This document shows positions 35,861-39,462 of a stretch of 64,000 bases of DNA, piece by piece. The DNA is from an uncultured Gemmatimonadales bacterium (GTDB taxonomy: Bacteria > Gemmatimonadota > Gemmatimonadetes > Gemmatimonadales > Gemmatimonadaceae): NCBI GenBank assembly GCA_963793305.1, contig CAWBZV010000003.1, positions 672,001 through 736,000 on the forward strand, in the 5' to 3' direction. The first letter of the stretch is position 1. The number at the start of each line of letters is the position of its first letter. A program made the translations under genes and the position numbers. The notes below the pieces were generated by a model. It saw nothing but the letters and a program-made list of their open reading frames with translations, did not search any database and was not told the origin of the DNA.

Positions 35861-36009
35861 CGGTCGGGAGAGTGTGTGGTCTCTCCTGGCGAGCGTCAAG
35901 TAACGCTGCAAAGAAAAACGTATGACGCGGGCTCCCAGCGGCGCTCCCGCGCCGCAGAGAGCCAGGTCGGTTGGACAACGCTCGGCTACGCCTCGCTATC
36001 TTCGTTTCC

Positions 36010-36969
36010 GTGCCGAACGTATGGAGGGCGGTGGGGAGGAGCGCCGAGGGCAGTTCGCATCGGCGGGCGAAGCTCCCGAATCAGGATGCGCTCCGACTGT
36101 GGAATCCACACGGCGACGGGCAATCGGTGATCGTCGCCGTCGCCGACGGCCACGGGAGCGCCACGCATTTTCGCAGCGCGACGGGTTCGCGGTTCGCGGT
36201 GGAGGTGGCCGAGCGGGTGTTGCGCGATCTCGATGGCGCGTTGCGCGCGGGCGGCGCGCTGGACGCTGAGCGCGAGCAGTGGATTCGGAAGGAGATCGTC
36301 TCGCGCTGGCGTGCGTGCTGTATCGCGGACGCCGAGGCGAACCCGTTCACGTCGGCCGAGGAGGTACGTCTGAGCGGAGCGGGCGCGCGCGACCAGATCT
36401 TCGATCGCGCGCTGGCCTACGGCTCGACGCTGCTCGCGGGGTTAGCCACCGACGGGCGCCTCGTACTGCTGCAGATCGGCGACGGCGACATCCTCGCGGT
36501 CGATGCGGCGGGATCCCAGTTCCGTCCTTTCCCCCGCGACGCTCGTCACGTCGCGAACCTCACGACGTCACTCTGTCTCCCGGACGCGGTCGACAACGTC
36601 CGCGTGGCGTCGCTCTCGCCGAACACGATCTCCCTCCTTCTCTTCGCGACCGACGGCTACGCCAACTCCTTCGCCTCAAGCGAGGCTTTCGAGCGCGTCG
36701 TCGGCCCGCAGATTCTCTCACAGGTGCGCGAGCGGGGGGTCTCCTGGGTCTCTCAGGTTCTTCCGAGCTCCCTCAAAGCCGCGGCCGAGCGTGGCAGCGG
36801 CGACGACGTGACGCTCGCGATTCTCACATGCGAGGACGCCCCAGCCGGAGCCATTGCCCCGGGGCAAGGTCGCAGCGATGCACCGGTGACGCTCAGCGGG
36901 CTCGTGGTCATGCTGGGCGTGCTGCTCGTGGTCGGGTTGTGTCTCTGGCGAGTACTGCTGCCCCGTTGA
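36010..36969 (+). CDS. PP2C-family Ser/Thr phosphatase with C-terminal TM helix
   Basis: G.SH....PNQDA, VADGHGS, QIGDGD, TTSLC, ATDG, GDDVT. Confidence 0.9.
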   Translation: MPNVWRAVGRSAEGSSHRRAKLPNQDALRLWNPHGDGQSVIVAVADGHGSATHFRSATGSRFAVEVAERVLRDLDGALRAGGALDAEREQWIRKEIVSRWRACCIADAEANPFTSAEEVRLSGAGARDQIFDRALAYGSTLLAGLATDGRLVLLQIGDGDILAVDAAGSQFRPFPRDARHVANLTTSLCLPDAVDNVRVASLSPNTISLLLFATDGYANSFASSEAFERVVGPQILSQVRERGVSWVSQVLPSSLKAAAERGSGDDVTLAILTCEDAPAGAIAPGQGRSDAPVTLSGLVVMLGVLLVVGLCLWRVLLPR

Positions 36970-36973
36970 CGGG

Positions 36974-37030
36974 AAAGACGAAACCCCGGGGAATCCTCCC
37001 CCGGGGTCACGCGGCAGCCCAGGAAGCGAC
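36974..37030 (-). ncRNA. Putative small antisense RNA 1 (anti-anticodon-arm, AGG/GGG variant) with intrinsic terminator
   Basis: Minus strand GCTTCCTGGGCTGCCGCGT + ACCCCGGGGG-AGGATT-CCCCGGGGT-TTCGTCTTT; promoter immediately upstream. Confidence 0.65.
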
Positions 37031-37034
37031 TGAC

Positions 37035-37062
37035 AATCTAGGTCATGCTCCGGCGCAATCAA
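37035..37062 (-). promoter_or_regulatory. Sigma-70-type promoter of sRNA 1
   Basis: TTGATT-16 bp-TAGATT. Confidence 0.6.
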
Positions 37063-37083
37063 CGTGCAACATTCCACGTCCAC

Positions 37084-37142
37084 AAAATGCGAAACCCCGG
37101 GGAATCTTCCCCCCGGGGTGACGCGGCAGCCTCGCAAGCAAC
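37084..37142 (-). ncRNA. Putative small antisense RNA 2 (20/20 complementary to the adjacent tRNA, positions 21-40) with intrinsic terminator
   Basis: Minus strand GCTTGCGAGGCTGCCGCGTC + ACCCCGGGGGG-AAGATT-CCCCGGGGT-TTCGCATTTT. Confidence 0.72.
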
Positions 37143-37145
37143 TAT

Positions 37146-37174
37146 AATTTAGGCCGCTCTCACAGCGTGGTCAA
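37146..37174 (-). promoter_or_regulatory. Sigma-70-type promoter of sRNA 2
   Basis: TTGACC-17 bp-TAAATT. Confidence 0.68.
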
Positions 37175-37201
37175 CGTGTAATCACGCACGGCGAACTAGC
37201 G

Positions 37202-37287
37202 TGCCGAGGACGGGATTTGAACCCGCACGGCCCTTTCGAGCCAGCAGCTTGCGAGGCTGCCGCGTCTACCAGTTCCGCCACCCCGGC
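37202..37287 (-). tRNA. Non-canonical tRNA: tRNA-Leu body with Ala anticodon CGC
   Basis: GCCGGGG acceptor / CCUCGGC-A73; D-arm GCGGAACUGGUAGACGC; anticodon arm GCAGC-CUCGCAA-GCUGC; long variable arm GGCUC-GAAA-GGGCC; T-arm GCGGG-UUCAAAU-CCCGU; CCA not encoded. Confidence 0.93.
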
Positions 37288-37368
37288 ACCTCGCGTGCTG
37301 GGCGAACACTGGGAATACTGCGACACAGTAGCCAAGAAAAGCGCACCACGACTAGTCAGCGGGCGAAG

Positions 37369-37397
37369 AGTATAGCGAGTCTCCGCCACGCCGTCAT
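37369..37397 (-). promoter_or_regulatory. Putative promoter of the tRNA gene
   Basis: ATGACG-17 bp-TATACT about 80 nt upstream of tRNA G1. Confidence 0.45.
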
Positions 37398-37452
37398 CGT
37401 TGAGTTGCGAACCGTATCGTTAAGCACTGAGCGATCTACAACGAGTCGAGCG

Positions 37453-39462
37453 TCAGCGCAATCCTTGGCCTGCGCTTGTCGTTCCAAGCTGCTGCTCGCC
37501 CCAAATGTAATGCCCGAACCAGTCCAGGTTCTCCTGCATGACCGATCGTTGCTGCTTGGGTTTGTCGATTGGGTGCCCGAACCCGGGATACACGACCATG
37601 CGCACCGGCACGCCCTTATCGCGAAGCGCCTGATAGAGCTCGAACCCATTCGGGATGGGCACGCGCTTGTCGCTCCCCCCATGCTGTATCAGCGTAGGAG
37701 TCTTCGCGGTCTTGATGTACGTGATGGGCGACGTCTTCTTGTAGATCTCCGGATCATCCCACGGCGTCGCGTGGAGATACTGTCGCGTAAAGGGATGGAT
37801 GTCGGTATTGACATAGTAGGTCATCCAGTCGGAGATGCCCGCCCCGACCGAGACCGCCCGGAACCGATCGCTGAACGTGGTGATGAACGCCGAGATGTAC
37901 CCACCTTCGCTCCACCCCATGGATGCCACTCGGCTCCGATCGACGAACCCTCGAGCGATGAGATAGTCGACGCCAGAGATGACGTCGGCATAGTCCCCGA
38001 CGCCCAAGTTGCGCACATTGAGCGCCCGGAACTTCTCGCCGTATCCGGCCGAGCCGCGATAGTTCGGCCTCAGGATAACGGCGCCTTTGGAGGCAAAGAG
38101 CTCGACGGGATAGTATCGATCCGCGCCGAGCGTGGTGCGATCGACGCCGGTCGGCCCGCCGTGGATGACGACGAGCAGAGGGTATTTCTTGGTGGAGTCG
38201 AACCCAGGCGGCGTGATGAGCACGCCTTCGACGGCCGCGCCGTCGGTGGATTTCCACTGCACGAGCTGCCGTCGGGCCGACTTGAACGCCGACAGCTGGT
38301 CCCCCATGGTTGTAATCGCTTTCGGCGCGAACGGTTTGATGTCGGAGACGCCGATCTCCGGATACGCATTATCCCCGGCCGCGACGAACGCGCACGGTGC
38401 TCGCGTGCCGCGCGAGCGAGAACTGGCCGGCGATGCGCTTGGGATCGGAGAGCGTCTCGACGGTGCCAGACTTGGGATCGACGCGAGAGAGCACCTGGTA
38501 GGTACGCTCAAGCGGTGAGAAGTAGATGCCGTCCTTGTCCCAAGCGAACGGCGACGCATTCTCGTCGAACGACGTGGTGATCGCACGCGGCGTACCACCG
38601 TTCGCACTCACCACCGCGATGACCGTGTTCGTGTAGTAGAAGTACGGACTCCCATTGGCGGTCGAGAACGCGATCTCGTTCCCGTCCGGCGACCACACGG
38701 GGTTCGTATTGGGGCCGCCGGCCTCGACGATCTTCTTGACGCTCTTGTCGGCGACGGTGACGACGTAGATGGCGGCGGTGTTGGACGAGCCGAGGTCGGG
38801 ATCGCGCTGTGCGGAGAACGCGATGCGGGAGCCGTCGGGCGACCACGCGTATGAGCCGACGGTGAACTGGTCGCCCTCGGTCAGCCGCCGCGGCTCGCCG
38901 CCGGCCGCGTCGACGAGCCACAGGTGGCTCATCGAGTAGTCGCCGCCGATGACCTGGATGTCGCCGTAGGTACTATCGCGATCTTTGCGCGCTTTGGATT
39001 TCGGGTCGCGACTCACGAACGCGATGCTGCGTCCATCGGGCGACCACTCGAGCTCCGAGACGCCGGTCTCGACGCGCGTCAGCTCTCGCGCTTCGCCGCC
39101 GTTCGGCGCGATGACGTAGATCTGCGTCGAGTCCTCGAGCTTCCCGCCGGGCAGCGCGACGGGCCGCGTGGAGAGGAACGCGATCCATTGCCCGTCGGGC
39201 GACCATTTCGCGTCGAAGCTCGACCCTTTGCCGCTGGTGAGCTGCACGCGCTGTGTGCCGGCGGCGTCCGCCAGCCACAGCTCGCGCTCGAACGCATTGG
39301 CCTCCCAGTTCGTGTGGGAGACTTCGTACGCGACCCACTTTCCGTCGGGCGAGATGCGCGGCGCATTCGCGCTTTTCATCTCCAGGGACTGGTCGATCGT
39401 GGGAGCCTGAGCGTGGCGGGGAGTGCCGCACCGAGCACGAGTACAATCGCGAGTTTTCGCAT
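37453..39462 (-). CDS. S9 family peptidase (PD40 propeller + prolyl-oligopeptidase domain), frameshifts near 39410 and 38390
   Basis: Signal MRKLAIVLVLGAALPA; WSPDG repeats; IHGGP, PNYRGS.GYG, GWSEGG, D.RVP, GH. Confidence 0.9.

Follow-up and report, generated by a model that had tools for sequence, protein, structure and literature searches.

The stretch of DNA analysed here, hereafter the window, covers 64,000 nucleotides (positions 672,001–736,000) of contig CAWBZV010000003.1 from the assembly GCA_963793305.1 of an uncultured Gemmatimonadales bacterium. On its minus strand, it harbors a leucine-type tRNA gene bearing an alanine anticodon and, downstream on the same strand, two short units, each embedding a segment complementary to the anticodon arm of that tRNA. 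This organization points to an antisense-silenced, potentially toxic missense tRNA charged with leucine, a mechanism that we regard as moderately probable. The features of the locus, listed from upstream to downstream in the coordinates of the window, are the following (sRNA, small RNA).

37369–37397, minus strand: candidate tRNA promoter, ATGACG-17-TATACT, located about 80–105 nt upstream of the gene (promoter scan; putative function)
37320–37326, minus strand: leader motif GTGTCGC (identical in 8/8 aligned leaders)
37201–37287, minus strand: class II leucine-type tRNA, CGC anticodon (Ala codon GCG), CCA end not encoded (ARAGORN and Rfam)
37146–37174, minus strand: unit 2 promoter, TTGACC-17-TAAATT (promoter scan)
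37120–37141, minus strand: unit 2 antisense segment, 5' end of the predicted sRNA (inverted repeat 37120–37139 / 37247–37266)
37082–37119, minus strand: unit 2 hairpin ACCCCGGGG-loop-CCCCGGGGT with the tail TTTCGCATTTTG (inverted repeats, RNAfold)
37035–37062, minus strand: unit 1 promoter-like site, TTGATT-16-TAGATT (read from the sequence, 8/12)
37009–37032, minus strand: unit 1 antisense segment (inverted repeat with 37242–37265, 24 nt, 79%)
36972–37008, minus strand: unit 1 terminator hairpin and T-rich tail (terminator scan)

The tRNA gene, 87 nt long, is the only one detected by ARAGORN in the window; it matches the Rfam family RF00005 with 55.1 bits (gathering score 29), and no other Rfam match above gathering score exists in the window, while seven relatives of this tRNA score between 45 and 55.5 bits. 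An initial annotation of this DNA had described it as an isotype-mismatched tRNA of the leucine type, and ARAGORN, Rfam, and an alignment of all the class II tRNAs of the genome concur in assigning to it a leucine body with the anticodon CGC. In this alignment, the D-arm (GTGGCGGAACTGGTAGACGC), with its placement of G18G19, and the discriminator base A73 correspond column for column to those of the five tRNA-Leu genes of the genome, and the variable arm is long; the gene is unlike the Ser, Tyr, and Sec tRNAs, the Ser tRNAs differing in the D-arm and having G73. Its anticodon is not one of leucine (NAG or YAA) but CGC, and relatives from other genomes have GGC, GCG, CUC, CAC, GAC, or UGG. The rest of the molecule is canonical, with an anticodon loop of 7 nt (CUCGCAA, with U33 and A37), an acceptor stem of 7 bp, and a T stem of 5 bp (the 7/5 arrangement).

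It is known that the alanyl-tRNA synthetase (AlaRS) needs the G3:U70 pair. The tRNA of the locus has C-G at this position, not G-U, and has neither of the marks of a tRNA-Ala (G3:U70 and a short variable loop); ordinary tRNA-Ala(CGC) genes, of 74 nt and 76 nt, are located elsewhere in the genome (5.7 Mb, 65% G+C, 92% complete). A single gene for the leucyl-tRNA synthetase (LeuRS) exceeds the family cut-off in this genome, which contains no second LeuRS. Bacterial LeuRS, SerRS, and AlaRS leave the anticodon unread. That these three enzymes ignore it is also stated in the accessible part of a published source (PMC11028032), so that the leucine scaffold is among the few that permit a free change of the anticodon without the loss of charging, which is the pattern seen here. 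Since the only LeuRS of the genome should be blind to the anticodon, the tRNA is expected to be charged with leucine and to decode in a missense fashion.

The two units are direct repeats on the strand of the tRNA (36981–37031 and 37093–37143), 112 nt apart and 75% identical. The promoter scan, run with a threshold of 9 of 12, called two sites, including that of unit 2, against 0.2 ± 0.5 in shuffled sequences. Six nucleotides past the −10 element of unit 2 lies a segment of 20 nt (37139–37120), all 20 positions of which are complementary to the tRNA, as the initial annotation had reported; the stretch that it numbered as tRNA positions 21–40 corresponds, by plain counting, to nt 22–41. The segment covers the 3' strand of the D-stem, nt 26, and, in the anticodon arm, the 5' strand of the stem, the entire loop, and the first two nucleotides of the 3' strand. 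The duplex energy computed by RNAduplex for unit 2 and the tRNA of the locus is −59.8 kcal/mol, the next best value among 62 tRNAs being −40.7, and cofolding of the two yields a gain of −21.5 kcal/mol. The 5' arm of the CCCCGGGG hairpin of unit 2 is also complementary to the tRNA; this complementarity, previously noticed for nt 2–9, extends over nt 2–12 (37113–37123 vs 37276–37286, 10/11). Unit 1 complements nt 22–31 of the tRNA and reaches nt 32–35 by G.U wobbles, with a mismatch at the anticodon position 36 and at position 37; its duplex with the tRNA of the locus (−46.2 kcal/mol) is the best among the 62 tRNAs, with a cofold gain of −6.5 kcal/mol. The hairpin of unit 1 (37008–36982; 12 pairs, 8 of them G-C) was called by the terminator scan. 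The stretch between the tRNA and unit 2 contains no terminator, and read-through transcripts containing both the tRNA and the antisense segment are thus possible.

The antisense match of the locus is far beyond chance: its best downstream antisense score is 42, the mean for the 59 remaining tRNA genes being 19.4 (sd 4.4), and one canonical tRNA-Arg also scores 43. The latter, a tRNA-Arg(ACG) located outside the window (C10:53911–53986, minus strand), is the last gene of an Ala-Val-Arg tRNA cluster and is followed, about 166–193 nt downstream, by a same-strand stretch of 28 nt antisense to its own anticodon arm, with two mismatches, one of which is opposite G36; an AT-rich hairpin comes after it, and no clear promoter is visible. 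This stretch could represent either another anti-tRNA RNA or the remnant of an integration site. In Rfam 15, the units of the locus match no family at gathering score, the matches at chance level (E up to 1) being F6 (20.1 bits vs 46), sX4 (17.1 vs 70), and sot2652 (14.4 vs 61).

The locus is one of three in this genome. Three Leu-type tRNA(CGC) genes of 87 nt, T1, T2, and T3 (the last being the tRNA of the locus), lie on the same contig (C3); their anticodon stems differ by compensatory changes, and each gene has its own downstream unit composed of promoter, antisense segment, and hairpin. The unit of T2 complements the anticodon arm of T2 (nt 24–39). An orthologue of T1 in another genome (L002, G001:C90) is followed by two units, unit 1 being antisense to nt 16–43 and unit 2 to nt 8–26. 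When a pattern combining the D-loop and the CGC anticodon loop was searched in 61 relatives, real members were found in four of the six genomes of the genus (including that of the window), the single match outside the genus being coding DNA. The three paralogues occupy syntenic chromosomal sites across several species of the genus.

A scan of GTDB with one genome per species returned 32 loci, in 21 of which a Leu-type tRNA(CGC) gene is followed by an antisense unit. Nineteen of these come from assemblies of Gemmatimonadota, including a 1.2-Mb contig of Longimicrobiales; the other two are on short contigs binned as Planctomycetales and Chloroflexota, and may be mis-binned. The remaining loci comprise one truncated tRNA with an intact unit, one Paracoccaceae tRNA with no unit, one tRNA fragment beside a normal tRNA-Leu, and eight chance matches. 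The Paracoccaceae gene (L019) is chromosomal, encodes the CCA end, and adjoins DNA of lower G+C content on one side (0.48 vs 0.62 on the other).

Scans that left the anticodon free were run on 151 and 401 genomes of the phylum. In the larger one, 15 genomes contain a real Leu-type tRNA with a non-Leu anticodon, accompanied by an antisense unit in 14 of them, and 10 further matching genomes showed chance matches in coding DNA. Within Gemmatimonadota, the anticodons found together with an antisense unit are CGC, GGC, GCG, CUC, CAC, and GAC, and the antisense segment tracks them: TTCGCAG in the GCG type, CTGCCA/G in the GGC type, CTTGAGAGG in the CUC type, GTGTGAG in the CAC type, and GTGTCAG in the GAC type. 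On the whole, a same-strand downstream antisense unit is present at 41 of the 44 assessable non-redundant loci with Leu-type tRNAs and non-Leu anticodons, a count from which L074, situated at a contig edge, was left out. In metagenomes, the anticodon-free pattern used (CGAATC-N15-45-TTGACTCGGC) was badly chosen, and its matches (at least 120 stretches) do not amount to a census; among the 80 loci listed, a tRNA adjoins the motif in five, three being family members (CUC, CGC, and GGC) with a matching antisense segment and two canonical tRNAs without one. Two metagenomic members (L087 and L094) have a variant D-loop, AAACTGGTAAAC, which patterns containing GGTAGAC cannot match, so that the prevalence figures are lower bounds. 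No match to the tRNA(CGC) pattern was found in viral contigs. All the carriers found are genomes of uncultured organisms. A skipping-rope RNA (L073:1340–1423, plus strand; RF02924, 45.1 bits, gathering score 36.7) lies about 150 nt downstream of the CUC-type module.

The units look like genes throughout the family. At 33 of 37 loci, a −35/−10 pair (typically TTGACT-17-TAnnnT) ends 2–8 nt before the start of the antisense segment; the four misses are artefacts of the custom scan, and the promoter tool does call unit 2 of the window. In the minimum-free-energy folds of the 37 loci, the segment is followed by a GC-rich hairpin and then a T-rich tail. In A1, an alignment of 34 loci running from the start of the tRNA to the antisense segment, conservation is at least 90% for TTG in the −35 element and for A and T in the −10 element, the surrounding spacer being free to vary.

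The 16 intermolecular pairs of A1 (tRNA columns 24–39 with sRNA columns 189–204) were compared with shuffles. A1 excludes duplicates, T1 and L061 (in which the antisense matches other parts of the tRNA), the broken-tRNA loci L077 and L047, L074, the three loci with no antisense, and the three metagenomic loci; five of its rows, visibly misaligned in the antisense block, were kept in the count. Paired cells amount to 88.6%, against 67.2% in shuffles and 29–49% when the two blocks are slid by 1–3 columns. The cells with double changes are 113 (36.9 in shuffles), and the covariation score is 0.558 (0.176 in shuffles); none of 500 shuffles reached any of these three values, although such figures overstate the independence of the data, the sequences being related. 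Double changes occur in 12 of the 16 pairs, vs 10.1 in shuffles, a count reached by 33 of the 500. As many as five pair types occur in a single column, and co-variation extends to the three columns of the anticodon (CG 25/GC 6; GC 26/CG 3/UA 1; CG 28/GC 3). In an ungapped test on 22 CGC loci, 13.1 of 15 variable positions are paired in cognate combinations, against 9.0 (sd 2.3) in 462 non-cognate ones; in the three genomes with paralogues, each of the nine sRNAs tested forms its most stable computed duplex with its own tRNA, by a margin of less than 3 kcal/mol in two cases. The initial annotation had named a lack of co-variation in homologous loci among the findings that would refute its proposal; co-variation is present, the antisense changing together with both the anticodon stem and the anticodon over 34 aligned loci and five anticodon types.

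The units resemble inverted copies of the 5' half of the tRNA from which the D-loop has been removed, which suggests how they might have originated. It might then be argued that they have no function as RNA, being decaying inverted duplicates of tRNA fragments (scars of recombination or integration) whose complementarity reflects descent or quasi-palindrome correction. The inverted copy near the canonical tRNA-Arg fits this idea, as does the fact that 431 of 462 core cells are Watson–Crick pairs with no excess of G.U. Decaying duplicates would leave unexplained why the antisense segment lies in the orientation of the tRNA with a promoter at a fixed distance before it and a terminator after it, at 33 of 37 loci and in two classes of the phylum. 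Moreover, the module has been kept although all the spacer DNA around it has diverged, its antisense corresponds to the anticodon in at least five anticodon types, and internal deletions always spare the complement of the anticodon arm. This explanation is thus considered very improbable, and the reading of the units as genes for antisense RNAs directed at a missense tRNA is retained in what follows.

The tRNAs of the family are real and under structural constraint, since the cloverleaf of the 34 members is 98.3% paired, with double changes in 18 of 24 pairs; the share of paired cells, the double-change cells, and the covariation score are reached by none of 500 shuffles, and the count of double-change pairs by one. 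A73 is invariant (34/34), and the 3-70 pair (alignment pair 3-84) is CG in 20 members, GC in 12, and UA in two, G-U never being found. These data bear on the possibility that the sRNA is the effector, acting on mRNAs, and that the tRNA-like RNA, which would then not need to decode, is a stable sponge or decoy for it; in E. coli, RyhB and RybB are titrated in this way by the external transcribed spacer at the 3' end of the leuZ tRNA precursor. An antisense seed at the 5' end followed by a terminator hairpin is a build typical of sRNAs, and tRNA-linked sponges are known, as far as the accessible parts of the sources go. A sponge would not need an intact acceptor stem, A73, a T-loop, or an anticodon loop of 7 nt with U33 and A37, all of which are conserved; in addition, the seed varies with the anticodon and with a fast-evolving stem, which makes a stable set of mRNA targets impossible, and the choice of a scaffold whose synthetase is blind to the anticodon is left unexplained. 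The sponge is, for these reasons, judged quite unlikely, and the tRNA is treated below as the target of the sRNA.

The anticodons with an sRNA partner are directed at abundant codons. In the codon use of 810 long open reading frames (ORFs) of the window genome, to which the following ranks refer, GCG is the first of 61 codons (63.5 per 1000), GCC the third, GUC the fifth, CGC the ninth, GAG the tenth, and GUG the thirteenth; the two UGG-type tRNAs, which are without an sRNA, match CCA, which ranks 41 of 61. It is known that tRNAs not engaged in translation exist in bacteria. The tRNA of the locus might likewise serve outside the ribosome, as an aminoacyl donor, or might, when uncharged, trigger the stringent response at abundant codons, the sRNA keeping it off the ribosome or setting its level; decoding by this tRNA is, indeed, a prediction from its sequence. 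Such a role finds no conserved enzyme gene in the neighborhood, the most widely shared neighbor protein occurring at 4 of 37 loci, and a diversity of anticodons that tends toward abundant codons is sensible only if the anticodon meets codons. A non-ribosomal use is, consequently, given a low probability, and missense decoding remains the preferred function of the tRNA.

The two genes flanking the module are ordinary ones:

35971–36969, plus strand: PP2C-type protein phosphatase gene, convergent, outside the module (Pfam PF13672, E = 2.9e-39)
37453–38607, minus strand: S9 prolyl-oligopeptidase-type hydrolase gene, upstream, same strand, outside the module (Pfam PF00326, E = 2.5e-54)

The S9 peptidase (37453–39379, minus strand) is split into two overlapping ORFs, one for the beta-propeller (38369–39379) and one for the catalytic domain (37453–38607), which may be due to a frameshift or to an artefact in the choice of the start codon. 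No gene for a hydrophobic peptide is present among the ORFs of at least 20 aa in the region 36970–37450, no mobile or defence genes were found among the neighbors of the locus, and no conserved protein partner emerged over the 37 loci. In a genome of the same genus (G005), the same flanking genes are separated by about 65 nt, vs about 480 nt here, with no module between them. At two other loci, the tRNA is destroyed, but its antisense unit is preserved together with the terminator: a CGC-type tRNA is missing 3' of the anticodon arm (L047, G136:C82), and about 55 nt have been inserted into the T-loop of a GAC-type tRNA (L077, G114:C100). The loss of the tRNA with the unit kept is the order of decay expected of a toxin/antidote pair. 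The decay at these two loci, the absence from G005, the lack of a protein neighbor, and a recognition that is pair-specific among multiple copies all favour a toxin/antidote pair or an accessory element, the behavior of the module being that of a small element, either selfish or accessory.

Upstream of the tRNA, the leader motif GTGTCGC is located about 35–40 nt before the gene, a second subgroup of loci having the related GCGTCGCAGCA; a conserved GGC(A/G) lies about 17–18 nt upstream of the motif, and no conserved fold was found in the aligned leaders. The motif might act as a promoter recognised by an alternative sigma factor or as a site where a protein binds. The layout ATGACG / 17 nt / TAT... 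of the candidate tRNA promoter can be read by eye upstream of the related loci L008, L001, L007, and L003. Another interpretation of the leaders, that of TTGYGA and GTCGCAG as anti-anticodons or anticodon mimics, was discarded, the sense of the motif with respect to the anticodon being opposite in the CGC-type and GCG-type loci. For promoters of the sigma-54 or extracytoplasmic function (ECF) type, the spacings do not fit the consensus.

A leader motif of this kind could be a regulated promoter, distinct from the TTGACT-17-TAnnnT of the sRNA, and this brings in a further possibility, that of a physiological switch, in which a constitutive sRNA sets a threshold, stress induces the tRNA, and a limited Ala-to-Leu exchange remodels or diversifies the proteome, with no addiction or defence involved. 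The presence of the paralogues at syntenic sites across species of the genus, amid ordinary neighbors, would agree with this, and tRNAProX provides a precedent in the part of its description that is accessible (PMC11415595). Nevertheless, the promoter reading of the motif is a guess, and aiming at the most frequent codons maximises damage rather than tuning; both the absence of the module from the syntenic site in a relative of the genus and the two loci where the antisense has outlived its tRNA fit a selfish pair better. A switch is accordingly given a rather low probability, although the data on the locus are compatible with it to the same degree as with a toxin, and, within the mechanism of an antisense-silenced missense tRNA, a role in addiction or defence is somewhat more likely than a physiological one.

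According to this mechanism, the locus would be an RNA-only module of two genes, the first being the missense tRNA and the second unit 2, of which unit 1 would be a weaker form. The single housekeeping LeuRS would charge the tRNA with leucine, which would then be inserted at alanine codons (GCG, the commonest of the genome). From its own sigma-70-type promoter to its terminator hairpin, unit 2 would yield an sRNA of about 57 nt with a free antisense 5' end. The pairing would probably either start at the pre-formed anticodon loop and invade the stem or catch the nascent pre-tRNA, made about 100 nt away. The D and anticodon stems cannot coexist with full pairing of the sRNA. The duplex would mask the anticodon, disrupt the L-shape, and offer a substrate of about 20 bp to RNase III. 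The sRNA would thus represent an antidote or a brake, the harm done by the tRNA being expected to rise in proportion to its level; if the sRNA fell relative to the stable tRNA, Ala-to-Leu errors would spread over the whole proteome and might serve either as a toxin of the addiction or abortive-infection type or as a gated stress response.

Several observations weigh against this interpretation. The same-strand succession of promoter, antisense, and terminator that the initial annotation had proposed for both units is correct as to its anatomy; the two scans call the promoter of unit 2 and the terminator of unit 1, whereas the promoter-like site of unit 1 (8/12) is uncalled and the terminator scan passes over the hairpin of unit 2, whose tail TTTCGCATTTTG is too T-poor in the window of the scan. 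The proposed tandem array of anticodon-arm antisense RNAs amounts to two units, and unit 1 has no complement to positions 36–37. In the same genome, the unit of T1 complements the variable arm and the D arm of T1, not its anticodon. Three Leu-type mismatched tRNAs, namely those of L051 (G272) and L064 (G044), with the anticodon UGG, and of L019 (Paracoccaceae), with CGC, have no antisense within 1.4–1.9 kb on either strand, which implies that the antidote is not obligatory. Among the non-Watson–Crick cells, 14 are G.U and 9 are A.C (p = 0.40), and with no significant excess of G.U over A.C, it stays unproven which strand's RNA pairs; template switching between the arms at the DNA level could keep the complementarity with no selection on RNA. 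In the one metatranscriptome retrieved, which contains 0.04 of the sampled words, four contigs, 85–93% alike, cover 37165–37362 (the tRNA and the DNA close to it), and none extends over the units; these contigs derive from relatives and are uninformative on sRNAs. Finally, a housekeeping regulatory role might explain equally well why several species have the three chromosomal copies at syntenic sites.

A broader proposal can be advanced only tentatively and is, in our opinion, more doubtful than the mechanism itself: the Gemmatimonadota might possess a class of RNA-only toxin–antitoxin or abortive-infection modules, each formed by a fully functional, Leu-charged missense tRNA directed at the commonest codons of the host and by a short-lived antisense RNA that would invade its anticodon arm; paralogous pairs would stay orthogonal through a fast three-way co-evolution between the sRNA and both strands of the anticodon stem, and other soil phyla may share such modules on other scaffolds with anticodon-blind synthetases.

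The module can be compared with systems described in the literature, the cited papers being considered in their accessible parts. Among the closest are the allo-tRNAs (Mukai et al. 2017, PMC5389517; PMC7609411), which occur in soil bacteria and for which the authors suspected links to toxin–antitoxin systems or mobile elements. Like the tRNAs of this family, they are bacterial, use the scaffold of an anticodon-blind synthetase, and bear many non-cognate sense anticodons (PMC5389517, PMC7609411). The two groups differ in that allo-tRNAs have serine identity (G73) and an acceptor domain of 12 bp in the 8/4 or 9/3 arrangement, whereas the tRNAs described here have A73 and the 7/5 arrangement and fall outside the definition of allo-tRNAs; moreover, allo-tRNAs are linked to protein toxin–antitoxin genes in other phyla, while the partner here is an RNA and the phylum Gemmatimonadota. 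The word "antisense" does not occur in the accessible text of PMC5389517 and PMC7609411, nor does "complementary" in that of PMC5389517. The nev-tRNAs of nematodes (PMC3333845, PMC4300185) are class II tRNAs with the anticodons CCC (Gly) and UAU (Ile), charged with leucine in vitro; they share with this family the class II structure and an anticodon that is neither of Leu nor of Ser, but they are eukaryotic, have other anticodons, and are described in the abstracts with no antisense partner (PMC3333845, PMC4300185). Other natural mis-decoding tRNAs are those of the yeast CUG clade. A further case is tRNAProX, which has a dedicated synthetase paralogue. In Streptomyces and Kitasatospora, the natural tRNAs of the tRNAProX / ProRSx pair combine one identity with the anticodons of other amino acids and serve in deliberate mistranslation (PMC11415595). 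The mismatch between identity and anticodon in a bacterium is thus common to the two cases, with proline identity in tRNAProX and, in this family, leucine identity, a single LeuRS in the window genome, and an RNA partner. If the proposed mechanism is true, bacteria maintain structurally complete tRNAs that violate the genetic code at the codons which they use most, providing a leucine counterpart to allo-tRNAs and tRNAProX.

The mechanism, if true, would also make a tRNA the target of a small RNA, an antisense control of decoding capacity with no precedent in the papers searched, and would give the known toxins a new member, a tRNA that acts through mistranslation. The pairs of anticodon stem and sRNA look like natural tRNA off-switches, orthogonal and programmable, that might be used in synthetic biology for controlling suppressor or missense tRNAs. 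The whole module spans about 250 bp and requires no dedicated protein, which makes every step directly testable in a laboratory strain.

As regards toxin–antitoxin systems, those of type I (hok/sok, ibs/sib) possess a strongly promoted short antisense RNA beside the toxin transcript, the toxin being a small hydrophobic protein. They resemble the module in their multiple chromosomal paralogues, pair-specific recognition, and patchy presence; they differ from it in that their antisense blocks the mRNA of the toxin, whereas the target here is a tRNA and no hydrophobic ORF is found, which places the module outside type I. The systems of type VIII (CreTA, SdsR/RyeA) pair an RNA toxin with an RNA antitoxin, as the module would according to the proposed mechanism. 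In them, as described in the accessible sources, CreT sequesters a tRNA, CreA acts through Cascade on a promoter, and SdsR is an sRNA that targets mRNAs; the toxin is never a decoding tRNA and the antitoxin never an RNA directed against an anticodon arm. In the literature searched, outside which most subscription journals lie, no description was found of a bacterial family of Leu-type missense tRNAs or of an sRNA antisense to an anticodon arm, and the phrase "antisense to tRNA" does not occur in the papers searched on RNA–RNA toxin–antitoxin pairs. By every comparison made, the association of a tRNA, as a regulated and probably toxic species, with a small RNA that targets it is new in kind.

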